Below are positions 37,130 through 63,306 of a stretch of DNA of 64,000 nucleotides, piece after piece (the first letter of the stretch is position 1; each line of letters begins with the position of its first letter). The notes under the pieces are model-generated. The model was not told where the DNA came from, did not search any database, and saw nothing but the letters and a program-made list of their open reading frames with translations. The position numbers and the translations under genes are program-made. Source of the stretch: Bdellovibrionota bacterium (GTDB lineage Bacteria > Bdellovibrionota_G > JALEGL01 > DATDPG01); NCBI GenBank assembly GCA_035292885.1, contig DATDPG010000019.1, positions 59,570 to 123,569 of the forward strand. The letters are read 5' to 3'.

Positions 37130-38365
37130 CTACGGTAAGTGCTTCGCATTCGGACTCGCCGGAGCCAGGCTCGTCAGAAACGCATAGAGATCCGCCATCT
37201 CCCGGCCCGTCAGTTTGGGCCACTTCAAGTGTTGCTCGGTATGCTTCTCTTGCATCTCGGTGGAGTGGTTCCACATCGCCGCGACCATGCCCATGGGGGA
37301 GTTCAATTTGCTGATGGCGGCGAAATCTTTCGCCGCGTTTCGTCCCTTGCCGTTTAAGGAGTGGCACGTCAGGCATTCTCGGTCCCTAACGAGATTCTCC
37401 CCTGTGGCGGGGCTCCCCGGTGCGTCCTCCAGTTTCATGCTGTAGAGATACGCGATGACGTGCGCCATCTCCCCCTCCTTGAAATCCGGGAACGTGAGTT
37501 TCTTTTCTTTCATCATCTCCCACATGGCGGGGCCGTGATTCCACATCTTGGCCGCGATCTCGGTCACGGGATAGTTGAAATCGACCTCAGCGAAATCGGG
37601 CGCCGTGGTTGGTGGTTTGGCACGGAACGAATGGCAATGCATGCACCCTTTTTCGGTCAAGAGTTCCTTCCCCTTTGAGGGATCGCCGAGGTCATAGTCG
37701 CTGGCCGGGAAGACGGTCGGGGCCATATACGAACGGATTCCGGCGGCCAGGGCGTCCATCTCGTCCTCTTCGATGACGGGCCGATCGATCTTGTACTTCT
37801 CAAAAAGCGCCAGCATTTTCGGGCCATGGTTCCACATCGCTTCCGCCAGTCGGATGGGGGAGATGTATTCCTTTTTCGCGCTGATGTCGGGAGCGATTCG
37901 GGCGCCTTCCCCTCCAAATTGATGACAAGAGAAGCATCCCTTTTCCTTCAGCACCTTTCTTCCCATCGATTCCCTCACCGGTTCCGCCATGTACCGGATG
38001 AAAGAGAGATAGCGAACCAGCTCGGACATCTCCTTCGGCGTGAACTTCGGAAAGGCATACCCTTTGGTCTCGATCTTCTTCGCCATTCTCGGAAGGTGAT
38101 TCCACATGACGGAAGAAAGCTCGAGGTATGTACCGTAAAACTTGCGGTTGCCCAGGTCGGGACCGCCGCGGCCCCCCCTCCCGTACACGGAATGGCACTG
38201 CGCGCATCCCTTCTGATGGAAGACTTCCCGACCCGGCCACGGTGAGGCCGAAGTGGCTGCTTCCTGCGCCCGAAGGGCGAAAATGGAGCCGGATGACATC
38301 AGGAGATACGCGAGAATGAATTGCAGGAGGCGGATGCAGTTTCTCCGGGTAGTGGACATAGTCAC
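37130..38365 (-). CDS. tetraheme cytochrome c of four class-I domains (paralog of 21720..22931)
   Basis: Signal peptide. Four CxxCH motifs, each with a GPD and a downstream MWNH motif. Confidence 0.75.
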   Translation of the reverse strand: MTMSTTRRNCIRLLQFILAYLLMSSGSIFALRAQEAATSASPWPGREVFHQKGCAQCHSVYGRGGRGGPDLGNRKFYGTYLELSSVMWNHLPRMAKKIETKGYAFPKFTPKEMSELVRYLSFIRYMAEPVRESMGRKVLKEKGCFSCHQFGGEGARIAPDISAKKEYISPIRLAEAMWNHGPKMLALFEKYKIDRPVIEEDEMDALAAGIRSYMAPTVFPASDYDLGDPSKGKELLTEKGCMHCHSFRAKPPTTAPDFAEVDFNYPVTEIAAKMWNHGPAMWEMMKEKKLTFPDFKEGEMAHVIAYLYSMKLEDAPGSPATGENLVRDRECLTCHSLNGKGRNAAKDFAAISKLNSPMGMVAAMWNHSTEMQEKHTEQHLKWPKLTGREMADLYAFLTSLAPASPNAKHLP

Positions 38366-52960: not shown

Positions 52961-54211
52961 ATGCCAGAGCTCAATCCGTTTAAAATTGCTCAGCAACAGT
53001 TCGATGAGGCGGCCGAAAAGCTCGGCCTCGACAGCGCTACGCGAGAACTTCTCCGGTGGCCGATGACCGAAACGATCGTCAGCATCCCCGTCCGGATGGA
53101 CGACGGAACGACGAAAGTGTTTCGGGGGTATCGCGTTCAATACAACGGGTCCCGTGGGCCGACAAAAGGCGGCCTTCGGTGGCATCCGGAAGAGACGATC
53201 GACACCGTGCGAGCCCTGGCGGCATGGATGACCTGGAAGACCGCGTGCGTCGATATTCCTCTCGGCGGCGCAAAAGGCGGCGTTACCTGCAATCCGAAGG
53301 CGATGTCGACGAATGAAAAAGAGCGTCTGGCGCGCGGCTATATCCGCGCCGTCTCTCGTCAGCTGGGCGTCATGAAGGATGTTCCGGCGCCCGACGTCTA
53401 CACGACGCCGCAAATCATGGGTTGGATGATGGATGAGTTCGAGACGATCGTCGGCGAGCATCATCCGGGCGTCATCACCGGGAAACCGTTGCCGTTAGGC
53501 GGCTCCGAAGGTCGCGGCGATGCAACGGCTCGCGGCGGAATTTATTGCGTCCGCGAAGCGGCCAAGAAAATCGGCCTCGATCCAGCCAAGGCGACTTACG
53601 CCATCCAGGGATTCGGCAACGCCGGCCAATTTGCGGCGACGTTGCATAAGGAAGTCCTCGGCGGCGGCCGGCTGCTCGCGGCCAGCGACTCCCGCGGCGG
53701 CGTCACGAGCCCGGACGGCATGAATCCGGAGGCTCTGGTGAAGTTCAAGAATGAAACCGGCAGTGTCGTCGGATTCCCGAATACGAAGCCGATTTCGAAC
53801 GAGGAACTTCTGGTCATGAAATGCGATGTCCTCTATCCGTCGGCGCTGGAGAATGTCATCACGAGTCAAAACGCCGCGAACATCAAGGCGAAGATCGTTT
53901 GCGAGCTGGCGAACGGCCCGACGACGCCGGAAGCGGACACGATTCTGTTCAAGAATAATGTGTTCGTTCTCCCGGACTTCATGGCCAATGCCGGAGGCGT
54001 GACGGTCTCTTATTTTGAGCAGGTCCAGAATACGTACAACTATTACTGGCCGATCCAAGACGTCCATCAGCAGTTGGATCGAAAGATGACCGACGCGTTC
54101 AACGCGGTGTACGAGACCTCGCAGAAGAAAAAAGTCCACATGAGGCTGGCTGCATATATGGTGGCCGTGGCGCGCGTGGCGGAGGCCTGCAAGCTGCGCG
54201 GCTGGGTCTAA
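52961..54211 (+). CDS. gdhA: glutamate dehydrogenase (Glu/Leu/Phe/Val dehydrogenase family)
   Basis: KGGLRWHP, DIPLGGAKGG and GFGNAG signatures. RBS ggagg. Confidence 0.9.
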   Translation: MPELNPFKIAQQQFDEAAEKLGLDSATRELLRWPMTETIVSIPVRMDDGTTKVFRGYRVQYNGSRGPTKGGLRWHPEETIDTVRALAAWMTWKTACVDIPLGGAKGGVTCNPKAMSTNEKERLARGYIRAVSRQLGVMKDVPAPDVYTTPQIMGWMMDEFETIVGEHHPGVITGKPLPLGGSEGRGDATARGGIYCVREAAKKIGLDPAKATYAIQGFGNAGQFAATLHKEVLGGGRLLAASDSRGGVTSPDGMNPEALVKFKNETGSVVGFPNTKPISNEELLVMKCDVLYPSALENVITSQNAANIKAKIVCELANGPTTPEADTILFKNNVFVLPDFMANAGGVTVSYFEQVQNTYNYYWPIQDVHQQLDRKMTDAFNAVYETSQKKKVHMRLAAYMVAVARVAEACKLRGWV

Positions 54212-54214
54212 TTA

Positions 54215-54381
54215 AGCGTCCCGAGCCCGACATATCTTGATAGTCGGCCGCCGCTGCATCCCGGTTGGCTGCGTTGCTCCCCCTCGACGTACAGCTTTGC
54301 AAGTACGCCGTCGTCGTCGCGCCTTGCCAACCGGGCGCATCGGCGTCCTTTGTTATCAATCTATCTCGGGCTCGGGACGCT
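54215..54381. mobile_element. 167-bp MITE-like palindromic element, copy A
   Basis: Terminal inverted repeats agcgtcccgagcccga / tcgggctcgggacgct. Internally an imperfect long hairpin. About 94% identical to the reverse complement of the element at 63140..63306. Begins 3 nt after the gdhA stop. Confidence 0.6.
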
Positions 54382-54442
54382 AGCGTTCCATAAGGGAACA
54401 CGGCGTTCTTTGCGGCGCCGGGTGGAATGTTATCATGCCGAT

Positions 54443-56827
54443 ATGCCCACCCGGCGCCGTCGTTTATCTCCTTCGAAATCGGCTCGTAAACGGCCTCCTC
54501 AGACTGAATCGAGTCGAGTCATTCAGCGCTATCTGCGCCGGTATCCGGGGCTCCGCGCCCGAATCATTCAGAATTTTCTCGTCCGCCTTCATTCCCAAGG
54601 GATCGTTTCGGTGGACGAAGTCTACCGGATTGCACTCGGGAAATCGGCGCTTCGGCAGCAGATCAAACACCGAGTCGCCATGAACATCGATACGGCCGTT
54701 CAATGGACGCGGACGGAACGGAACGCCGTATGGAAAACCGTTTTGTCGTACGCCGAGCGGCACTTTTCTCCGGAAGAAATTCACGATCTGGTCGGCGTGA
54801 CGGTCAAACGGGAAGAAGCGCAGAATCTTCAAGACATCGCCGGTCTTCCGGGAATTTCCTTCGAAATTCTTAAACGCAGGGTCGCGGATTTCTGCAAGCT
54901 TCCGCGGACCATCATTTCCCTGCCGCCTTCCGATCTGGTGGCGACCCGCGTCGCCCTCATGCGGCAGTTTGTCAGCGATCACATTGATTTTCTTACGGTC
55001 GCACGAAACTACGTCCAGGTGCGGGACCTGGACGTCGTCGCCCAGCGAATCATCGGTCCGAGGGAAGGAATGGGGCGGATCGGCGGGAAAGCGGCCGGCC
55101 TGCTTCTGGCCGACAAGATTTTACGCCAGCATTACCAGAACGCGGGAAGAGAGCCTCTGATGCCGCTCAAGACACCCGACTCATATTATTTGCGGTCCGA
55201 TTTGAACGACGAGTTCGTCCGCCGGAACGGCCTCATGGAATACGCGAGCCAGAAATACAAATCGCAGGAGGCGATCGAAGCCGATTACCCCCTGCTCCGG
55301 GAGCTTTTTCACGCCGGTTCATTCCCTCCCGAAGTCGTCTCCCGCATTCGAAAATTGCTGGAGAAACTCGGACCCACGCCGTTGATCGTCCGTTCCTCCA
55401 GTTTGTTGGAAGACAGCCTCGGCGCCGCGTTTTCCGGGAAATACCGGAGCATCTTTCTGGCGAATCAGGGCTCCCTTTCCAATCGACTGATTCGCTTTTT
55501 GAGCGCCGTAAAGGAGGTTTACGCGGGCGTGCTCTCGGCCGATCCACTGGTCTACCGGCGGGAGCGGGATCTAATCGACTACGACGAATTCATGGCGATT
55601 CTGATTCAACCGGTCGTGGGAAGGACGTATCGGCACTATTATTTTCCACTTTTCGCCGGCGTGGCGTTTTCGCGAAACGATTACTACCGGTGGGACCGCC
55701 GAATTCGCCGCGAGGACGGCTTGGTCCGCCTCGTCGCGGGGCTCGGCACACGCGCCGTGGACCGTGTCAGCGCGGAGTATCCGAGAATGATCGCCCTCAC
55801 GGTCCCGTCGCTCCGTCCCCAAGGGGACGTGGACGAGATCTGTCGCCAGTCTCAGCGCCGCGTGGATGTCGTGAATCTTAGAACGAACAGATTTGAAACA
55901 CTCAATTTTACCGACGCGATCGAGGCGGAACCCCCGCCGAATTTCGATCTGGTGGCTTCCATTGTAGAAGAGGAAGCCTTGCGACCGATCGTCGGAAATT
56001 TCGTGGATACCTCCCGACAATCGATCTGCCTGACGTTTGACAAATTGATTGAATCGACGCCGTTCGCGCCTCACATGCGTGAGGTGTTAAGCGTCTTGGA
56101 AAAGGGCTACGGATGCCCGGTGGACATCGAGTTCGCCAGCGATGGAAAAGATTTTTATCTGCTTCAATGCCGGCCGTTGGCGCAGAAAATCGAAGCTAGC
56201 CGTGTGCGCGTTCCGACGGACGTCGAGCCGAAGCGGGTTCTGTTCAACGCCCAGCGTGACGTGATGAACGGCATCGTGCGAAATATTGAATACATTGTTT
56301 ATGTTCCGGCCGAAGCGTACGACGACGTCTCTGATCTGACGACGAAACAGATGATCGGCCGCGTGGTGGGGCAGCTGAACCAGAAACTGCACGGCTCCAG
56401 ATTCATCTTGCTCGGTCCGGGACGCTGGGGATCCAACGACATCAATCTGGGCGTGCGCGTGAATTACGCCGACATTCGAAACAGCCGCGCTCTCATCGAG
56501 GTGGCTCATGAGAAGGACGGTTACGTTCCCGAAGTTTCGTTCGGCACACACTTCTTTCAAGATCTTGTGGAATCCGGAATCAGTTACCTGCCGCTCTATC
56601 CGGATGAGCCGGGCGGAATCTTCAATGCGGATTTTCTTCTGAATTCACCGAACCGCTTGCCGAAACTGTTGCCCAACCACAAGAGTTTTGCCCCGATAGT
56701 GCGGGCCATTCATGTCCCTGAAGTGGCGGAAGGCGAGTACGCCCATTTGCTGATGGACGGCGAGAATGAATTGGCGCTCTGTTATCTGGGCCCGATGCAG
56801 AGGGAAGAGGCGTCGACGCAGGCGTAG
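54443..56827 (+). CDS. PEP/pyruvate-binding (PPDK_N / PpsA N-terminal ATP-grasp-like) domain protein with N-terminal unknown domain
   Basis: GGKAAGLLLAD...LIVRSSSLLEDSLGAAFSGKYRSIFL matches the nucleotide-binding domain of PEP synthase/PPDK. No phospho-His swivel domain seen. Start set at the first ATG downstream of the MITE. Confidence 0.6.
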   Translation: MPTRRRRLSPSKSARKRPPQTESSRVIQRYLRRYPGLRARIIQNFLVRLHSQGIVSVDEVYRIALGKSALRQQIKHRVAMNIDTAVQWTRTERNAVWKTVLSYAERHFSPEEIHDLVGVTVKREEAQNLQDIAGLPGISFEILKRRVADFCKLPRTIISLPPSDLVATRVALMRQFVSDHIDFLTVARNYVQVRDLDVVAQRIIGPREGMGRIGGKAAGLLLADKILRQHYQNAGREPLMPLKTPDSYYLRSDLNDEFVRRNGLMEYASQKYKSQEAIEADYPLLRELFHAGSFPPEVVSRIRKLLEKLGPTPLIVRSSSLLEDSLGAAFSGKYRSIFLANQGSLSNRLIRFLSAVKEVYAGVLSADPLVYRRERDLIDYDEFMAILIQPVVGRTYRHYYFPLFAGVAFSRNDYYRWDRRIRREDGLVRLVAGLGTRAVDRVSAEYPRMIALTVPSLRPQGDVDEICRQSQRRVDVVNLRTNRFETLNFTDAIEAEPPPNFDLVASIVEEEALRPIVGNFVDTSRQSICLTFDKLIESTPFAPHMREVLSVLEKGYGCPVDIEFASDGKDFYLLQCRPLAQKIEASRVRVPTDVEPKRVLFNAQRDVMNGIVRNIEYIVYVPAEAYDDVSDLTTKQMIGRVVGQLNQKLHGSRFILLGPGRWGSNDINLGVRVNYADIRNSRALIEVAHEKDGYVPEVSFGTHFFQDLVESGISYLPLYPDEPGGIFNADFLLNSPNRLPKLLPNHKSFAPIVRAIHVPEVAEGEYAHLLMDGENELALCYLGPMQREEASTQA

Positions 56828-56836
56828 CGGCAAGCG
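56732..56836. repeat. direct repeat copy 1 (3' end of the PEP-binding-domain gene)
   Basis: About 105 bp (ggcgagtacgcccatttgctgatggacggcgagaatgaattggcgctctg...) repeated at 57486..57590 with about 7 mismatches. Confidence 0.7.
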
Positions 56837-56861
56837 TGGAGTTCGCGATCGGGAAACCCGG

Positions 56862-57143
56862 TCAGCTGATTTTTTCTTTCTCCGCCATCCGCCCGCTTAC
56901 AAACTTGTAAAGTACGCTTGAAATCAGCGTCTGATAAGGTATCCCTTCTTCCGCCGCCTTCACCCGAAGCCGCTCCAGCACCTGAGACGGAATTCTTATA
57001 TTCACCCTCTTGTCTTTGGCGAGCGTAGCGCGGGCGTATTTTTGGTATTTAGATTTTTCCCTTCTCAGTGAACGAACGGAACGCCATTCGTCTCGATCAT
57101 AAGAATCAAGAATCTCCTTCTCCTCTATATTTGGATGCTTCAT
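56862..57143 (-). CDS. brnA: BrnA-like RHH antitoxin
   Basis: ...RVNIRIPSQVLERLRVKAAEEGIPYQTLISSVLYKFV typical of BrnA/CopG antitoxins. Confidence 0.65.
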   Translation of the reverse strand: MKHPNIEEKEILDSYDRDEWRSVRSLRREKSKYQKYARATLAKDKRVNIRIPSQVLERLRVKAAEEGIPYQTLISSVLYKFVSGRMAEKEKIS

Positions 57144-57421
57144 TTGCGTCCCTTTCGTATATATATTCGGGTAGCCTTACGACTCGGAATGATGGTTTTA
57201 AACACGATTTCTGCGCCCTTTTCTTCAAAGGGGACCAAACATGCGTAACCGTTGATATCGAGGACGAAAATTCGCTGAAAAGGGTACTTCGCCTTATTGG
57301 GATGTTCCAAGATATCGAGAACACCTCCTCTTTCAATGACCAAAACCGCTTCCTCGAAGGAAATTTCTCGTTGGCTCTTAAGGCTCGCATTCTTCCCCGG
57401 ATCCCACGTAAAAACCTTCAC
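57140..57421 (-). CDS. brnT: BrnT-like (DUF497) ribonuclease toxin
   Basis: MKVFTWDPGKNASLKSQREISFEEA matches the BrnT N-terminal signature. GTG start. 4-nt overlap with brnA. Confidence 0.65.
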   Translation of the reverse strand: MKVFTWDPGKNASLKSQREISFEEAVLVIERGGVLDILEHPNKAKYPFQRIFVLDINGYACLVPFEEKGAEIVFKTIIPSRKATRIYIRKGRK

Positions 57422-57485
57422 TGTTGCTAATTGTAAGACAATGTGTGCCTAACGTCAACAACACTCTGGGCTAGTCGTCGCAGCC

Positions 57486-57590
57486 GGCGAGTACGCCCAT
57501 TTGCTGATGGACGGCGAGAATGAATTGGCGCTCTGATATCTGGGCCCTGTGCAGAGGGAAGAGACGTCGACGCAGGCCTAGCTGCAGGCT
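57486..57590. repeat. direct repeat copy 2 (degenerate duplicate of gene 3' end, downstream of brnTA)
   Basis: See copy 1. Reading frame broken by a stop (gcgctctgatat). Confidence 0.7.
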
Positions 57591-57651
57591 TGGACTGATT
57601 CAGATCATAGTAATTGTGCGTGCCGGCAATCATGATCCAGAATAGGAAATT

Positions 57652-58734
57652 ATGACCCAAATCCGAGCCTGGAAGTTCCAAAAAGCGGGGGAGCCGTTTT
57701 CGTTTGCGGAATCCGCCATGCCCAAACCGGCGCCGGGAGAAGTGTTGGTGCGAGTCGCGGGTTGCGGGGTTTGCCACACGGATCTCGGATACGTCTACGA
57801 CTCCGTTCGGACCGTCAAACCCCTTCCGCTGACGCTCGGTCACGAAATCAGCGGATTCGTGGAGGAGGTCGGCGCCGGGGCAAAAGAATGGATGGGAAAA
57901 GCGGTGATTATTCCGGCCATCCTTCCCTGCGGCGAATGTGATCTTTGCAAGAAGGGGAGACGATCGATCTGTCGGCGGCAGAAAATGCCTGGGAACCATA
58001 TCGACGGTGGTTTCGCAAGTCACATTGTTGTTCCCTCCCGTTTTCTGTGCGCCGTGCACGTTCGAAACGAAAATGAACATTTCGGCGATTCCGGCGTCAC
58101 GCTGAAGGAGCTCTCCGTCGTGGCGGATGCCGTTACCACGCCGTACATGGCGATTAAAAGGAGCGGCTTGGCAAAGGGCGATTTGGCGATCTTCGTCGGT
58201 GTCGGCGGAATTGGGGGTTTTGGTGTTCAGCTCGCCGCCGCTTTGGGCGCAACGGTTGTGGCCGTCGACATCTCGGACAAACGTCTTCAATTCATGAAGG
58301 AACATGGCGCCGAGGCCATTTTCAATTCGAAAGAGATCAACGGAAAGGAACTCCGAAGGGCGATCGGCGCGTTCGCGGCCGAACGAAAACTTCCGTCGTA
58401 CGAATGGAAGATTTTTGAAACCTCGGGGAGCGCCGCCGGGCAAGAACTAGCGTTTGGGCTCTTGACCTTCGGCGCTCATTTGGCCGTCGTCGGTTATACG
58501 ATGGAACAACCCGCCCTGCGCTTAAGCAATTTGATGGCGTATGACGCCCAAGCTTCGGGAAATTGGGGATGTGATCCGGTCTATTACCGGGAGGTGCTGG
58601 ATCTGGTAAAGAGCGGAAAGATCAAGCTTGCGCCGTTCGTGGAGCTGCACCCATTGAACCAGATCAACGAGATTTTCAACTGGGCGCACCACAAGAAACT
58701 GGAACGGCGCGCCGTTCTGATACCGGAAAAATAA
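57652..58734 (+). CDS. had: Zn-dependent MDR alcohol dehydrogenase, candidate 6-hydroxycyclohex-1-ene-1-carbonyl-CoA dehydrogenase
   Basis: GCGVCHTDLGY zinc-ADH motif. GVGGIGGFGVQ Rossmann fold. 360 aa. Gene order matches the Thauera had-oah-dch-bcrCBAD cluster. Confidence 0.55.
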   Translation: MTQIRAWKFQKAGEPFSFAESAMPKPAPGEVLVRVAGCGVCHTDLGYVYDSVRTVKPLPLTLGHEISGFVEEVGAGAKEWMGKAVIIPAILPCGECDLCKKGRRSICRRQKMPGNHIDGGFASHIVVPSRFLCAVHVRNENEHFGDSGVTLKELSVVADAVTTPYMAIKRSGLAKGDLAIFVGVGGIGGFGVQLAAALGATVVAVDISDKRLQFMKEHGAEAIFNSKEINGKELRRAIGAFAAERKLPSYEWKIFETSGSAAGQELAFGLLTFGAHLAVVGYTMEQPALRLSNLMAYDAQASGNWGCDPVYYREVLDLVKSGKIKLAPFVELHPLNQINEIFNWAHHKKLERRAVLIPEK

Positions 58735-58744
58735 AGGAGGACCG

Positions 58745-59845
58745 ATGTCGCCGTTTAAAGATCATGATTTGGTTCCGAATCCGAAGTTCACGCAGATCCT
58801 TTACGAATTAAAGCCGTGTCGGAACCCGAAAGGGTCGTCCGTTGCCGACCTTTTCAACGCGTGGATCACGCTGAACAATCCGGAGCAGTTCAATTCGTAC
58901 ACGACGCAGATGGTGAAAGAGACCATTTTGGCGTTTCGGACCGCGTCGAATCAGCGCAATGTGGTCGCGGTCGTCTTGACGGGCGCGGGCGAAAAAGCCT
59001 TCTGTACGGGGGGGAACACGAAGGAATACGCGGAGTACTACGCGGGCCAGCCGGACGAATATCGCCAATACATGAGGCTGTTCAACGACATGGTGACGAC
59101 GATTCTCCAGTGCGACAAGCCGGTGATCTGCCGGGTCAACGGCATGCGGATCGCCGGAGGCCAGGAAGTCGGCATGGCGTGTGACTTCTCGATCGCGAGC
59201 GACCGCGCAGTTTTCGGACAGGCCGGACCGAAGCACGGCTCCGTTCCGGACGGCGGCTCGACGGATTTCTTGCCTCTTTTCGTCGGCGTGGAGCGGGCGA
59301 TGGAAAGTTGCACGCTCTGCGAGACCTGGAGCGCCTATCAGGCGTATCGGCTCGGATTGATCACCGACGTCGTTCCGGTGCTGAAACGGAATGGAACGTT
59401 TATTTCGAACCCGGCGGTCATTACGGGCCGCTGGATCGATGAGGCCGGAAAGATCGTCTACGGCCAATTCAAGACGGGAGAGGACCGATCGAGCGCCGAA
59501 AAGATCGTTCGCGAATGCAAGGTGGATCTGTCGGCGCTCGATCGTGCGGTCGAAAGTATGTGCACGTCCCTTCTAATGACGATGCCGGGGTGCCTCTCCA
59601 AGACGCTCAGCTCCGTTCGAAAGCATAAGCTGGAACATTGGGACCGGAACCGAGAGACCAACCGCGACTGGCTCGGCCTGAACATGATGACCGAAGCGAA
59701 GGTCGGGTTCCGGGCGTTCAACGAAGGAACGAAGGAAAACCGCGAGGCCGATTTTATCGAGCTGCGCCGGAGACTTGCCCGCGGCGAGCGATGGAGCGAC
59801 ACGTTGGTCGAGGCGGTCCTCCCGTCGAAGAAGGAGAAGATTTAG
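58745..59845 (+). CDS. oah: crotonase-fold enzyme, candidate 6-oxocyclohex-1-ene-1-carbonyl-CoA hydrolase
   Basis: 366-aa enoyl-CoA hydratase/MenB-like (VLTGAGEKAFCTGGN, GGQEVGMACD), the size expected for Oah. Confidence 0.45.
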   Translation: MSPFKDHDLVPNPKFTQILYELKPCRNPKGSSVADLFNAWITLNNPEQFNSYTTQMVKETILAFRTASNQRNVVAVVLTGAGEKAFCTGGNTKEYAEYYAGQPDEYRQYMRLFNDMVTTILQCDKPVICRVNGMRIAGGQEVGMACDFSIASDRAVFGQAGPKHGSVPDGGSTDFLPLFVGVERAMESCTLCETWSAYQAYRLGLITDVVPVLKRNGTFISNPAVITGRWIDEAGKIVYGQFKTGEDRSSAEKIVRECKVDLSALDRAVESMCTSLLMTMPGCLSKTLSSVRKHKLEHWDRNRETNRDWLGLNMMTEAKVGFRAFNEGTKENREADFIELRRRLARGERWSDTLVEAVLPSKKEKI

Positions 59846-60616
59846 ATGGTCCCCTTCAAGAAGATCAAAGTCGACAAACTCTACGACGGCCAGGTTTGGT
59901 GGATTACGTTGAATGTTCCCAAGGGTAACGTTCTGGACCGGGAGATGATGTTGGAGATCGAAGACTCCGCGAGATCGGCCCGCATTCCGTCGGTGAAGGC
60001 GCTTGTTTTCGAGGGGGCGGGGGATCATTTCTCGTTCGGCGCCAGCGTGGCCGAACACACCAAAGAAGCGGCGCCGAGCATGCTGGCGGCGTTCCATCAA
60101 CTCTTCCGAACGTTGATCGATTCATCGAAACCTCTGGTTGCCGTCGTACGGGGTCAATGTCTCGGAGGAGGAATGGAATTGGCGACGTTTTGCCACTGGG
60201 TGTTCGCTTCCGAAAACGCCATGTTCGGCCAGCCCGAGATTCAGCTCGGCGTTTTTCCGCCGGTCGCATCGATCGTGCTTCCAGCCAAGGTCGGCCAGGC
60301 GGCCGCGGACGATCTCATCCTGACGGGTCGGTCGATTCCGGCGCGCGAAGCCAAGGAAATCGGCCTCATCACTTCCGTTTCCGGCGATCCAAAGGCGGAA
60401 GCGACGAACCTGCTCGACAAACAGATTCTCCCCAAGAGCGGTGCGGCGCTGGAATTCACCGTAAAAGCGAGCCGGTATGAATTTCATGAAGCCTTCCGCC
60501 GTGGAATCGAGCGGCTGGAGAAGACGTATGTTCGTGAATTGATGGAAACCGCCGACGCCAACGAGGGAATCGCATCCTTCCTGGAGAAACGGAAACCGGC
60601 CTGGAAAAATCGATGA
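59846..60616 (+). CDS. dch: enoyl-CoA hydratase, candidate cyclohexa-1,5-diene-1-carbonyl-CoA hydratase
   Basis: 256-aa crotonase (FEGAGDHFSFGA, GGGMELA). Confidence 0.5.
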   Translation: MVPFKKIKVDKLYDGQVWWITLNVPKGNVLDREMMLEIEDSARSARIPSVKALVFEGAGDHFSFGASVAEHTKEAAPSMLAAFHQLFRTLIDSSKPLVAVVRGQCLGGGMELATFCHWVFASENAMFGQPEIQLGVFPPVASIVLPAKVGQAAADDLILTGRSIPAREAKEIGLITSVSGDPKAEATNLLDKQILPKSGAALEFTVKASRYEFHEAFRRGIERLEKTYVRELMETADANEGIASFLEKRKPAWKNR

Positions 60617-60623
60617 GGAATTC

Positions 60624-60695
60624 GGGGGACACACGACTGGACCCAAACTCCAATTGCTTCTCAAGAAGCCAATTCGGGTCCATACATGTGTCCCC
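60624..60695. repeat. 72-bp imperfect nested palindrome between dch and bcrC
   Basis: gggggacacac...gtgtcccc outer stem with an inner ccaattg...caattcgg stem. Confidence 0.4.
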
Positions 60696-60706
60696 TTAAT
60701 TAAGAG

Positions 60707-61870
60707 ATGACCGTCGAGCAGATCATCGGGCGCTGTCAGGTGCTCTACGACGATCTGGAATTCAAATACGTCCGAGAATGGAAATCGAAAAAAGCCGGGC
60801 GCAAAGCGGTGGGTTACATGCCGATCTATATCCCCCGGGAGCTGGTGCGGGCGGCCGGTATTCTTCCCGTCGGCCTGATGGGCGGGGGGGACCAGCTGGA
60901 AATCATCCGCGGAGATTCGTACTTTCAGTCATACATCTGCCACATTCCGCGAAGCACGATCGAACTGGGTCTCCTCAAGAGATTCGATGACCTCGATGGT
61001 TTGATCTTTCCGAGCACGTGCGACGTCATCCGAAACCTGTCGGGGATGTGGAAGCTTCTGTTTCCCGACCGGTACGTGAAATATTTTGATGTTCCGCAGA
61101 ATTTCGACCGAAATACGGCGGGAACGTATTACCGCCACGAGCTTCAGACGCTGCAAACGGATTTCGAACGGTTGTCCGGACAAGAGATTTCGGCGGAAGG
61201 ACTTCGAAAGGCGATCCGGCTCTATAACGAGAACCGGCGCTTGATTCGGGAGCTGTACGATCTTCGCTGCGAGCGGCCCTGGCTCGTTCCAACGACCGAG
61301 AGCTACCTGCTCCTTCGAGCGGGAAATCTCCTGGACGTCGAAGAGCACAATCGAATGCTGGCGGACTACCTCCGAGCCGTCATTCGCGTCGACCGCCGTC
61401 CTCTGGACAACAGCCGGGTCGTGATCCGGGGCGTTTTCTGCGAGCAGCCGCCGCTCAACCTGATCAAGACCTTGGAACGTTCGGGCTGTTACATCGTGGA
61501 AGACGATTTCGTCCTGGTCTCCCGCTGGATTCGAGGAGACATCCCCACCGAGGGGGACCCGCTCGAGAATCTGGTTCGCGCCTTTTTGGAGGACAGCGTG
61601 GAAACCGCCGTTCGGTACGACAGCGCGGACGAAAAAGGAACCCGATTGATCGAAATCGTCCGAAAGCGAAAAGCGGACGGCGTGATTTTTTGTGCGCCCA
61701 GTTTCTGCGATCCGGCACTTCTGGACCAGCCGATGTTGACGGCGGCTCTGGAAAAAGAGGAGATTCCTTATACGCACTTCAAGTTCGCCGAGAACACCGG
61801 GCAGTTTCAGGTCATCCGGGAGCAGGCCGGAACCTTTTCGGACTCCGTGAAACTTTGGGGGACCCTATGA
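60707..61870 (+). CDS. bcrC: benzoyl-CoA reductase / 2-hydroxyacyl-CoA dehydratase family subunit (BcrC/BadD-like)
   Basis: 387-aa HGD-D family. Positioned before the BcrB-like and activase-type genes. Confidence 0.6.
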   Translation: MTVEQIIGRCQVLYDDLEFKYVREWKSKKAGRKAVGYMPIYIPRELVRAAGILPVGLMGGGDQLEIIRGDSYFQSYICHIPRSTIELGLLKRFDDLDGLIFPSTCDVIRNLSGMWKLLFPDRYVKYFDVPQNFDRNTAGTYYRHELQTLQTDFERLSGQEISAEGLRKAIRLYNENRRLIRELYDLRCERPWLVPTTESYLLLRAGNLLDVEEHNRMLADYLRAVIRVDRRPLDNSRVVIRGVFCEQPPLNLIKTLERSGCYIVEDDFVLVSRWIRGDIPTEGDPLENLVRAFLEDSVETAVRYDSADEKGTRLIEIVRKRKADGVIFCAPSFCDPALLDQPMLTAALEKEEIPYTHFKFAENTGQFQVIREQAGTFSDSVKLWGTL

Positions 61871-63141
61871 GCGGAAAAATTCAAAAAGAACAGAGCATGG
61901 TCGTTCAAAAAGAAATGATCGCCGACTATTACAGCCGTCTTTCCCGGGCGCACGACGAAGGGAAGAAGGTCGTCTACACGTTTGTCCCCGGAAATTTGAT
62001 TGAATTGATCGACGCGCTCGGATTTTTGCCCGGTCTACCCGAGATCAACGCTCTTCAATCGGGGATGCGCGGCAAGTCGGCGGGGTACATCGCCGAGGCG
62101 GAAAAGGCGGGACATTCGGAAGATGTCTGCACGTACGTCAAGTGCGACATCGGGATGAAAAAATCGGGAAACATCGGTCCGACCGGCGAGAAAATTCCCG
62201 AACCGGATCTGTTGCTCCTGTCGTACACCGGCTGCTTCACCTTCATGAAATGGTTCGAGCTTCTCCGGAAGGAATACAACTGCCCGGTGGCGATGCTCCA
62301 CGTTCCCTACCAAGCGGACGGCGTCATCACCGACAACATGCGCAACTACGTCGTCGACCAGTTAAAAAACAACATTATCCCGACCATGGAAAAGGTGGTC
62401 GGTCGAAAGCTCGATCTGGACGAATTGTCGGCCCGCATGGCTCGCTCGGCGAAGGCGGAAGACGATTTGGTAAGCGTGTTCCAGTCGGCCAAGAAACGGC
62501 CGTCGCCGATCGACGCGTATTTCGGGGGCGTCTATTATATCGGGCCGATCTTCACGGCGTTCCGGGGCAGCGAAGCGTGCCAGACCTATTACCGCGTTCT
62601 CCGCGGTGAAGTGGAAGAGCGGATCGAGGAGCACAAAGGGCCGGTGACGCCCGAAGGGGACATTTCGCAGGAAAAATACCGTCTCGTCGTAGAGGGGCCT
62701 CCCAATTGGACCAACTTCCGGGAGTTCTGGAAGATGTTTTACGATGAGGGGGCGGTCGTTGTCGCCTCGACCTATACGAAAGTCGGGGGCGTCTACGACC
62801 GAGGCTTCCGGCACGATCCGAATCGTCCGCTCGAATCGCTCGCCGAGTACTGTCTCGGCTGTTACACGAACTTGAATCTCCCGTCGCGGATTTCGATGCT
62901 GGAAAAATATGTGAAGGAGTACGACGCGGACGGCTTTCTCATCAATTCGGTCAAGAGCTGCAATTCCTTCTCGGCCGGACAGCTTTTGATTTTGAGGGAA
63001 CTCGAAGCCCGCACGGGAAAGGCGGGAGCGTTCATCGAGACGGACCTCGTCGACCCCCGGTACTTCTCGGCGTCGAACGTGAAGACTCGACTTGAGTCGT
63101 ACTTTCGAATGATCGACATGAAAAGGGCAAGGGCAGCCTAG
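61867..63141 (+). CDS. bcrB: benzoyl-CoA reductase / 2-hydroxyacyl-CoA dehydratase family subunit (BcrB/BadE-like)
   Basis: 424 aa. ATGA overlap with the preceding gene. Confidence 0.6.
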   Translation: MSGKIQKEQSMVVQKEMIADYYSRLSRAHDEGKKVVYTFVPGNLIELIDALGFLPGLPEINALQSGMRGKSAGYIAEAEKAGHSEDVCTYVKCDIGMKKSGNIGPTGEKIPEPDLLLLSYTGCFTFMKWFELLRKEYNCPVAMLHVPYQADGVITDNMRNYVVDQLKNNIIPTMEKVVGRKLDLDELSARMARSAKAEDDLVSVFQSAKKRPSPIDAYFGGVYYIGPIFTAFRGSEACQTYYRVLRGEVEERIEEHKGPVTPEGDISQEKYRLVVEGPPNWTNFREFWKMFYDEGAVVVASTYTKVGGVYDRGFRHDPNRPLESLAEYCLGCYTNLNLPSRISMLEKYVKEYDADGFLINSVKSCNSFSAGQLLILRELEARTGKAGAFIETDLVDPRYFSASNVKTRLESYFRMIDMKRARAA

Positions 63142-63306
63142 TGTCCCGAGCCCGAAATAGATTGATAACAAAGGTCGCCGATGCGCCCGGATGGCAAGGC
63201 GCGACGACGAAGGCGTACTTGCAAAGCTGTACGTCGAGGAGGAGCAACGCAGCCAGCCGGGATGCAGCGGAGGCCGTCTATCAAGATATGTCGGGCTCGG
63301 GGCACT
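63140..63306. mobile_element. 167-bp MITE-like palindromic element, copy B (inverted relative to copy A), inserted between bcrB and bcrA
   Basis: TIRs gtgtcccgagcccga / tcgggctcggggcac. Internal sequence about 94% identical to the reverse complement of 54215..54381. Confidence 0.6.

Follow-up and report, generated by a model that had tools for sequence, protein, structure and literature searches.

A brnT-brnA-type toxin-antitoxin operon flanked by a functional and a dead copy of a PEP/pyruvate-binding gene 3' end: a probable recombination scar in a Bdellovibrionota bacterium

In the window (the whole 64-kb stretch of Bdellovibrionota DNA analyzed here, 64,000 nt in length), a gene encoding a PEP/pyruvate-binding protein with a PPDK_N domain is followed by a small toxin-antitoxin (TA) operon on the opposite strand, behind which the last codons of the PPDK_N gene occur a second time. 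The features of the locus, in window coordinates, are:

54443..56827, plus strand: PEP/pyruvate-binding (PPDK_N domain) gene, 794 aa; PF01326, E=2.4e-49; product identical to HLG18492.1
56723..56842 (core 56732-56840), plus strand: left repeat copy; functional last 34 PPDK_N codons, TAG and ~15 nt of 3' flank
56847..56863, plus strand: predicted terminator-like hairpin with T-rich tail; 7-pair stem including 5 GC pairs, consensus match only
56862..57143, minus strand: brnA-type ribbon-helix-helix (CopG family) antitoxin gene, 93 aa; NCBI HLG18493.1, CopG family antitoxin
57140..57421, minus strand: brnT-type (DUF497) toxin gene, 93 aa, GTG start
57430..57458, minus strand: predicted sigma-70-like promoter of the TA operon; TTGACG, 17-nt spacer, TACAAT, 10/12 consensus matches
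57477..57596 (core 57486-57594), plus strand: right repeat copy; displaced dead 34-codon stub of the PPDK_N 3' end
57652..58734, plus strand: had (6-hydroxycyclohex-1-ene-1-carbonyl-CoA dehydrogenase); TIGR03201, 498 bits, cut-off 339

The PPDK_N start at 54443 is the NCBI call, other gene callers placing it at 54611. On the far side, had is the first gene of a had-oah-dch-bcrC-bcrB (benzoyl-CoA) cluster; it starts 56 nt past the right copy and is not part of the insert.

The two gene-end copies have the same orientation and directly abut the insert. Their core (56732-56840 versus 57486-57594) comprises 109 nt with 8 mismatches (92.7% identity, gap-free), so that the repeat described in the sequence-only reading is borne out, while its figures of about 105 bp and about 7 mismatches have to be replaced by these values. 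With the fuzzy edges included, the repeats span 56723-56842 and 57477-57596 (118-120 nt, 13 mismatches in 120, ~90% identity). The first 50 nt of the core, GGCGAGTACGCCCATTTGCTGATGGACGGCGAGAATGAATTGGCGCTCTG, are identical between the copies and represent the longest exact repeat of the 64-kb window, compared with 14-16 nt in shuffled copies of it; the only other long direct repeat in the window is one weak 43-nt pair, and neither a repeat search nor tblastn revealed a third copy of the gene end there. Both copies terminate at TAG in the same frame, and the similarity extends ~15 nt beyond the PPDK_N stop codon. The left copy completes the PPDK_N open reading frame, ending in GEYAHLLMDGENELALCYLGPMQREEASTQA followed by the stop. 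The right copy carries a nonsense codon at a conserved Cys (TGT>TGA, 57534-57536), which is in frame and not the frame-breaking stop initially perceived. In this stub, which is devoid of indels, the PPDK_N C-terminus is still readable (tblastn: residues 761-794, 88% identity over 34 aa, E=2e-12), and its 'AAG' agrees with the PPDK_N orthologue of 70% identity (L170). The variants of the right copy read GTC GCA GCC ..., CCT GTG, ACG and GCC.

The insert between the repeats measures 634 bp, has a low GC content (42-49% versus 55-60% in the flanks) and holds nothing but the minus-strand brnT-brnA-type operon with its own sigma-70-like promoter, both genes being intact; operon plus one gene-end copy make up a unit of 754 bp. 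The insert is trimmed closely around the operon, its edges lying at most 20 nt from the brnA stop codon on one side and, on the other, ~18 nt from the -35 hexamer and 55 nt from the brnT start, upstream of both. The predicted hairpin follows directly on the left copy, within the inserted DNA, and overlaps the brnA stop codon. The toxin gene comes first, its stop overlapping the brnA start by 4 nt (ATGA), and this toxin-antitoxin order is identical at related BrnTA loci (L172-L179). A short palindrome, ATTGT-CTT-ACAAT, can be read from the sequence over the -10 hexamer. The toxin matches PF04365 over profile positions 1-75 of 77 with E=2.5e-6, at 28.1 bits under the cut-off of 34.5; it has no NCBIfam match, and its best PDB match is 7vd7 ('toxin') with an E-value of only 0.25. 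Among its 677 homologues, the best of which are 58-67% identical, PF04365 is found in the majority, and 'BrnT family toxin' is the name given to some. The antitoxin passes the cut-off for PF12441 CopG_antitoxin (37.1 bits, cut-off 28), but stays under that for PF14384 BrnA (24.2 bits, cut-off 26.1) and far under that of the NCBIfam BrnA model (E=5e-6, 26.5 bits, cut-off 60). Domain content, the ribbon-helix-helix antitoxin and the gene order thus point to a BrnT/BrnA-type toxin-antitoxin operon.

Six metagenome contigs, from six samples and two assembly pipelines, agree with the segment 56500-57800 at 100% identity, and the same structure is present in the NCBI MAG contig of 133 kb that carries HLG18492.1-HLG18494.1. 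Since it is identical in these seven independent assemblies, the repeat/insert structure is not an assembly artefact. None of the seven shows an empty site or a presence/absence polymorphism. One JGI contig (L003) diverges from the window at 55708.

The comparison with relatives places the insert exactly at a break in synteny. A gdh gene precedes the PPDK_N gene, and this pair is kept in 116 of 160 distant loci, an arrangement that is ancestral. Downstream of PPDK_N, neither brnTA nor had, oah, dch or bcr occurs in any of the 160, and no BrnT or BrnA is encoded anywhere near PPDK_N in them. In the two nearest PPDK_N orthologues, 70% and 63% identical in a full-length protein search, other genes follow, with neither the TA pair nor had among them. 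As the downstream genes differ in every relative examined, the PPDK_N gene end is a synteny breakpoint. In GC content, the benzoyl-CoA cluster matches the remainder of the window, the TA operon being the sole exception. The foreign GC content, the completeness of the operon including its promoter and the synteny break at the insert uphold the original idea of an insertion or recombination footprint that captured a TA module.

Searches for a donor, an empty site or a sister allele gave no hit, the closest PPDK_N orthologue in the databases being only 70% identical. A search of genome and metagenome contigs with the C-terminal half of PPDK_N returned relatives of at most 54% identity among the matches listed, the 90%-identity protein cluster of the PPDK_N product contains identical sequences only, and no allele of the right-copy type was retrieved with the last 100 aa of PPDK_N. 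A duplicated gene end was seen at 0 of 155 distant homologous PPDK_N loci, a count that is weak with respect to recent events, there being no close relative in the databases. At related BrnTA loci, bracketing repeats were absent (0/4), and no near-identical cassette was found elsewhere, the nearest BrnT being at most 67% identical. No match to BrnT or to the peptide pattern of the gene end was found in viral contigs, and plasmids yielded no DNA match, BrnT being represented there only by distant proteins (at most 46.5% identity). As to mobility functions, no integrase, excisionase or transposase is encoded in the insert or among the ~45 window ORFs of at least 150 aa, and the Phage_integrase, Resolvase and DDE families have no member among these ORFs; the window contains no tRNA and no Rfam family, and the insert ends lack terminal inverted repeats. 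The sequence-only reading had gone further in proposing a cassette integration mechanism that uses the gene end as attachment site. This is not supported: there is no recombinase in the 64 kb, no second repeat site in the window and no duplication at the 155 loci, the four related BrnTA loci are devoid of bracketing repeats, and a near-identical cassette is absent elsewhere.

Three classes of known elements were considered and discarded. A transposon or insertion sequence does not fit a locus with neither terminal inverted repeats nor transposase and with a duplication of 109-120 nt that is diverged. An integron cassette would call for attC-like hairpins and an IntI, whereas the repeats are direct coding sequence and IntI is absent. 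Likewise dismissed was a composite transposon with the two 169-nt palindromic elements as its boundaries, of which the left one lies within the conserved gdh-PPDK_N pair.

How the differences between the two copies are distributed bears on their origin. Clustering of the mismatches around the perfect 50-nt block is suggestive, given how few they are (P=0.008 for all 13 mismatches over 120 nt; P=0.05 when the 109-nt core is taken alone). The non-coding tail (4/15) is more diverged than the coding part (9/105), which is likewise suggestive on few mismatches (Fisher p=0.058). Among the differing codons, 4 of 8 are synonymous and one is the stop. Such a spread seems unlike the neutral decay of an initially identical duplication. 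Given this clustering, and with silent changes making up half of the coding differences, the copies would represent two alleles rather than a fresh target duplication; the pattern hints that these were already diverged when recombination joined them. The perfect block could, on the other hand, also result if gene conversion had acted between the copies or if the left copy were under coding constraint. The left repeat edge (56723-56731 versus 57477-57485) matches patchily at 5/9 positions and is weak as a microhomology joint. Polarizing the differences with the outgroups L170 and L171 was abandoned, as silent sites are saturated at 63-70% protein identity and the lineage-specific tail has no counterpart in them.

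What we see is probably a one-off recombination scar of a known kind and not evidence of an active cassette system. With moderate confidence, we regard it as a fossil left by incoming DNA that carried its own copy of the PPDK_N gene end. According to this scenario, a foreign brnT-brnA operon (634 bp comprising promoter, toxin, antitoxin and a short tail) would have entered at the 3' end of the PPDK_N gene, bringing along the final ~110 bp of that gene in a slightly diverged version. Recombination in or beside the shared segment would have left the left copy (56723-56842) to complete the gene, while the other copy, displaced behind the insert (57477-57596), became useless and then gained a stop codon. 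Since the incoming DNA would have brought its own gene end and the other copy was displaced, the repeats would be the incoming and the resident allele of one gene end, not a freshly made target-site duplication. Counted against this reading is its need for a donor with brnTA beside a PPDK_N gene end, a constellation seen in 0 of the 160 distant loci.

As to the route, we favor homology-anchored recombination in the PPDK_N gene. It may have proceeded through one homologous and one illegitimate join (homology-facilitated illegitimate recombination, or 'C-terminal displacement') or through a single crossover of a circular intermediate; the main alternative would be site-specific integration by an integrase acting in trans or since lost, on the model of icd/e14. 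Displaced 3' stubs behind new toxin/immunity modules have been ascribed to homology-facilitated illegitimate recombination (PMC5361080), and 'C-terminal displacement' has been proposed for Rhs and for T6SS effector-immunity arrays (PMC5361080, citing Jackson et al. 2009). The PPDK_N locus shares with these arrays a new toxin-plus-protector module behind a conserved gene, an orphan 3' fragment downstream and no need for a dedicated recombinase; the orphan 34-codon stub with its nonsense codon indeed sits directly behind the TA promoter. It differs in that a single displacement is seen, and in that the displaced region of the arrays is the toxin domain of the conserved gene, whereas PPDK_N is unrelated to the TA pair.

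A possible, though clearly less probable, explanation is a site-specific integrative element of the icd/e14 type, non-autonomous or decayed to a 'CIME', inserted by a tyrosine or serine integrase from the element itself or from elsewhere in the genome. Its attP would have carried a substitute PPDK_N 3' end, the repeats would be attL and attR, and the TA pair would be the surviving addictive cargo. The architecture and numbers agree with those of icd/icdC around the cryptic prophage e14 of E. coli K-12 (165-nt repeats, 12 mismatches, 92.7%, gap-free): in icd/icdC, also with phage 21, the last codons and stop of a coding gene are duplicated, the copy beside the gene body (there the element-borne one) completes the ORF and the far-side copy is a dead stub. 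Direct repeats that duplicate a target gene 3' end and leave the gene intact, as found here, are what such an element would produce, and the 50-nt perfect block could hold the crossover core. However, e14 is a 15.2-kb element with intE and xisE, whereas the insert here has 634 bp and only the TA operon, in a 64-kb window free of recombinases; the codon changes in icd/icdC are silent in 9 of 11 cases and evenly spread, whereas the 8 found here, of which 4 are silent and one is a stop, are clustered.

CIMEs can be excised or mobilized by the integrase of a related element. They are decayed ICEs or IMEs that have lost the integration genes, have kept attL and attR and reside at target-gene 3' ends (PMC5704250). 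Such elements typically carry addiction modules, as in the present case. The differences lie in the repeats, 109-120 nt here versus generally 8-60 bp for ICE/IME-type att repeats (PMC5704250), and in the lack of any sign of ICE/IME origin, of a tandem neighbour element and of excision or presence/absence polymorphism. Speaking further against an integrative element, neither the insert nor the ~45 ORFs (at least 150 aa) of the 64-kb window encode an integrase or excisionase, the tightly trimmed insert offers little room for arm sites, and its decay would require two tidy deletions. Moreover, recurrent targeting of the gene end is not seen (0/155 homologous loci), the gene-end sequence occurs in no viral contig, and an empty site or polymorphism is lacking in the seven assemblies.

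We consider it unlikely that the repeats are a true target-site duplication, generated by fill-in of a staggered break of ~110-120 nt, capture of a TA fragment by end joining and later divergence of the copies. The gap-free repeats in the same orientation, abutting the insert, are what this would leave behind, and requiring no recombinase it fits the absence of one. Yet the mismatches are clustered (P=0.008 to 0.05) and not uniform, and decay of a dead copy predicts something other than half of the coding differences being synonymous and the non-coding tail being the most diverged part. Known target duplications of transposable elements measure 2-14 bp, against 109-120 nt here, and the insert ends show no terminal inverted repeats. 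Finally, a divergence of 10% would imply great age, while the stub is free of indels and the TA genes are intact.

It is similarly improbable that the right stub arrived with the benzoyl-CoA genes, i.e. that a donor had-oah-dch-bcr segment preceded by the last ~118 nt of its own PPDK_N gene was placed downstream of a resident brnTA. The stub is contiguous with the upstream region of had, and because had, oah, dch and bcr are absent after PPDK_N in 160/160 distant loci and in both closest orthologues, the cluster too is non-ancestral at this position. Its GC content, however, equals that of the window, the TA operon alone being deviant; no donor with a PPDK_N-had junction was found, and two separate acquisitions at one point would be needed. 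A role of the TA pair in stabilizing the benzoyl-CoA genes, as suggested by the sequence-only reading, is unsupported.

Still more doubtful is the notion that the 754-bp unit is a minimal, recombinase-less mobile cassette, in which the ~110-nt host gene end provides the homology handle or is an att site recognized by an integrase supplied in trans. If true, a selfish TA pair could move into related chromosomes and leave the target gene functional, and the mobility of chromosomal TA loci, noted long ago but unexplained, would have a concrete mechanism. That gene ends of two strains were joined into a chimera during assembly or binning is hardly credible: the repeats do show strain-like divergence (~92%) and the departure of contig L003 indicates that chimeras or rearrangements occur nearby, but 56500-57800 is 100% identical in the six contigs (six samples, two pipelines) and the 133-kb NCBI MAG contig.

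Returning to the favored recombination scar, the TA pair is predicted to have persisted thereafter as an addictive, self-regulated module. In BrnT/BrnA systems, the toxin is a growth-arresting ribonuclease, and the antitoxin both neutralizes it and represses the operon. The distribution of chromosomal type II TA operons is notoriously patchy, and, to our knowledge, they usually bear no visible trace of their arrival. Here such a trace has been kept, and as the operon lies between a live and a dead copy of the host gene end, the entry route would have rebuilt the target gene, not destroyed it. Representing a single fixed event with no comparators, the locus is mainly a clean, textbook-style example. 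The module itself has in common with known BrnT/BrnA type II systems the toxin-first bicistronic operon, proteins of ~90 aa, a DUF497-type toxin, a ribbon-helix-helix antitoxin and a palindrome over the promoter, and differs from them in that both proteins are divergent, scoring below the curated cut-offs of their own BrnT/BrnA models. Gene callers overlooked or truncated brnT, which calls for caution on the part of annotators.

A single long direct repeat covers the 3' end of the PPDK_N gene, which encodes a PEP/pyruvate-binding protein: repeat detection across the window placed it at 56723-56840 versus 57477-57594 (118 nt, 90% identity), and by BLAST the core (56732-56840 versus 57486-57594) extends over 109 nt and aligns without gaps, 8 of its positions differing. 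Its left edge is fuzzy, with 5 of 9 bases matching in the alignment and by base-by-base count; a perfect 50-nt block comes next, the 8 mismatches fall in the rest of the core, and similarity stops about 15 nt beyond the stop codon. The longest exact repeat measures 50 nt versus 14-16 nt in shuffled copies of the window, and the gene-end repeat is far beyond chance. Region reading and repeat detection thus bore out the sequence-only reading, according to which the gene end recurs behind a toxin-antitoxin pair. The 794-aa gene genuinely ends in the left copy (738 aa from the alternative start; Pfam PF01326, E=2.4e-49). The translated right copy corresponds to residues 761-794 (88% identity, E=2e-12) and carries an in-frame TGT>TGA change at a Cys conserved among orthologues, so that what had been described as a frame-breaking stop is actually a nonsense codon, with no frameshift. 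A third copy of the gene end was not found in the window, and apart from the gene-end pair just one direct repeat reaches 40 nt, a weak one (43 nt, 37266-37308 versus 37827-37869, 74% identity) within the gene of a 411-aa multi-domain cytochrome c (minus strand, 37130-38365), where it probably reflects an internal domain duplication.

The insert between the copies comprises 634 bp (56843-57476) with two overlapping 93-aa ORFs on the minus strand and the following features:

57458-57430, minus strand: predicted promoter TTGACG-17-TACAAT, upstream of the brnT-type ORF
over the -10 hexamer of this promoter: small palindrome, read from the sequence
57421-57140, minus strand: brnT-type ORF, GTG start; BrnT/DUF497, near-full profile match (E=2.5e-6)
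57143-56862, minus strand: brnA-type ORF, above the CopG_antitoxin model threshold
56847-56863, plus strand: terminator-like hairpin, 3' of the left copy

The brnT-type ORF scores below the Pfam curated cut-off; of its 677 database homologues, most bear PF04365 and some go by the name BrnT family toxin; the best reach only 58-67% identity. The brnA-type ORF matches BrnA models, but under their thresholds. With its two ORFs, promoter, hairpin and low GC (42-49% versus 55-60% in both flanks), the insert presents itself as a complete, compact and compositionally foreign putative toxin-antitoxin operon, and nothing more. Gene callers missed or shortened brnT: the 93-aa GTG-start ORF covers the full BrnT profile, ENA and JGI records start it at internal ATGs, giving 67 or 56 aa, and the gene is apparently absent from the NCBI annotation, as HLG18493.1 (antitoxin) is directly followed by HLG18494.1 (Had).

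The PPDK_N gene is preceded by a glutamate dehydrogenase gene (gdh), the pair occupying 52961-56827. Among the matches listed, gdh adjoins the PPDK_N gene in 116 of 160 distant loci (drawn from genomes as well as metagenomes, none above 54% identity), and BrnT, BrnA, Had, Oah, Dch and BcrC are missing from the neighbourhood of all 160. Of the two nearest orthologues found in the protein database, one (70% identity) precedes FHA-domain genes and the other (63%) a phosphoribulokinase-family gene. Given this gdh adjacency and the differing downstream genes, the gdh-PPDK_N pair is ancestral and the PPDK_N 3' end is a synteny breakpoint. The pair recurs across many phyla (among them Planctomycetota, Acidobacteriota, Aminicenantes and Calditrichia, with some archaeal MAGs as well), and its conservation suggests that a functional link exists for this uncharacterised protein family. 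Downstream of the right copy lie:

had: TIGR03201, 498 bits
oah: TIGR03200, 560 bits
dch-like hydratase gene: NCBIfam, 236.6 bits, below the cut-off of 292.5
bcrC: TIGR02263
bcrB: TIGR02260

These genes (57652-63141) constitute a class I (ATP-dependent, Bcr-type) benzoyl-CoA cluster in a Bdellovibrionota-labelled MAG and are adjoined by many multihaem cytochrome genes; the ATPase subunit genes bcrA and bcrD were not seen up to the window end. That brnTA might stabilize this cluster, as had been suggested, by acting as an addiction module beside acquired genes is possible in principle and unsupported.

The brnTA locus is a genuine and neat insertion scar, somewhat unusual and of a known kind. 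All viable models have in common that the incoming DNA would have brought its own copy of the PPDK_N gene end, one copy today completing the gene and the other left as a stub displaced from it; this shared statement is the one that we somewhat favour. The preferred route would be homology-anchored recombination without a dedicated recombinase, proceeding either by one homologous and one illegitimate join or via a circle and a single crossover; we prefer it because the window has no integrase, little more than the operon itself is left of the insert, and the 155 homologous loci do not show this site being targeted again. For an insertion that lacks a recombinase, two published concepts are on record, CIME (PMC5704250) and homology-facilitated illegitimate recombination (PMC5361080). 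A Pfam scan of about 45 window ORFs of at least 150 aa (multihaem cytochromes, Ser/Thr kinases, molybdopterin oxidoreductase, FeoB, malic enzyme and similar) returned no integrase, resolvase or transposase; the window holds no tRNA gene or Rfam family, and the insert ends bear no inverted repeats. A second copy of the gene end was found near none of the 155 PPDK_N loci with an identifiable end among the matches listed. The closest BrnT relatives, at four loci on long contigs, have the identical toxin-first order in unrelated neighbourhoods, none of the four being bracketed by repeats. Viral contigs yielded neither the gene-end peptide pattern nor a BrnT relative, plasmids only distant BrnT proteins, and public databases no near-identical cassette elsewhere. 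As far as public data show, the insertion is a lineage-specific one-off. The proposed use of the gene end as an attachment site, though conceivable, is left with neither a recombinase in the window, nor recurrence at the 155 loci, nor polymorphism among the assemblies.

Integrase-mediated insertion by an element that has since decayed or was aided in trans appears rather unlikely, yet is still a serious rival because the icd/e14 precedent fits so well. In the E. coli K-12 annotation, prophage e14 begins within icd and stops shortly ahead of the pseudogene icdC; the icd end that e14 brings is repeated directly in icdC over 165 nt at 92.7% identity (12 mismatches), and 9 of the 11 codon changes are synonymous. 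Architecture and identity level are practically the same as for the brnTA repeats. However, e14 measures 15.2 kb and carries intE and xisE, unlike the 634-bp insert with its operon only.

We give little credence to a wide staggered break with end-joining capture of the insert and later divergence of the copies, as the mismatch pattern speaks against it. Thirteen mismatches in 120 nt with a 50-nt perfect run gave P=0.008 in simulations (P=0.05 for the 109-nt core); eight codons differ (4 synonymous, 3 conservative missense, 1 stop), and the 15 nt after the stop diverged at 4/15 positions versus 9/105 in the coding part (Fisher p=0.058). A fresh target duplication that decayed later predicts even, frame-blind differences, and those between the copies are not so spread. 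With these small numbers, we lean towards two alleles that would have diverged when each still served as a working gene end and would then have been joined by recombination; the identical 50-nt block could mark the crossover or a later gene-conversion tract. Similarly improbable is that the right stub arrived together with the benzoyl-CoA genes, whose GC is the same as that of the rest of the window.

An assembly artefact is very unlikely, since 56500-57800 recurs at 100% identity in six metagenome contigs, each from a different sample (four ENA MEGAHIT and two JGI assemblies), and the same proteins, HLG18492.1 to HLG18494.1, lie on a 133-kb contig of a third-party MAG at NCBI that bears the label Bdellovibrionota bacterium; no empty site or polymorphism was seen across the six contigs and this MAG. 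A JGI metagenome contig (L003; 3300025324, Ga0209640_10040269) matches 55708-58177 at 100% identity, a stretch with the 3' half of PPDK_N, the two repeat copies, brnTA and the 5' end of had. The agreement breaks off sharply at 55708, where a sigma-54-dependent response-regulator gene absent from the window takes over; this is due either to chimeric assembly or to a genuine rearrangement within PPDK_N in a different sample.

A 169-nt element without Rfam match occurs in two inverted copies of 93% identity, one between gdh and the PPDK_N gene (54215-54383) and one directly 3' of bcrB (63138-63306), which together bracket PPDK_N, brnTA and had-oah-dch-bcrCB. Itself a long imperfect palindrome (fold z-score -8.9) with terminal inverted repeats (...GTCCCGAGCCCGA / TCGGGCTCGGGAC), it looks MITE-like on these grounds. 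The metagenome contig k141_952286 terminates within the right copy, in line with a multi-copy repeat.
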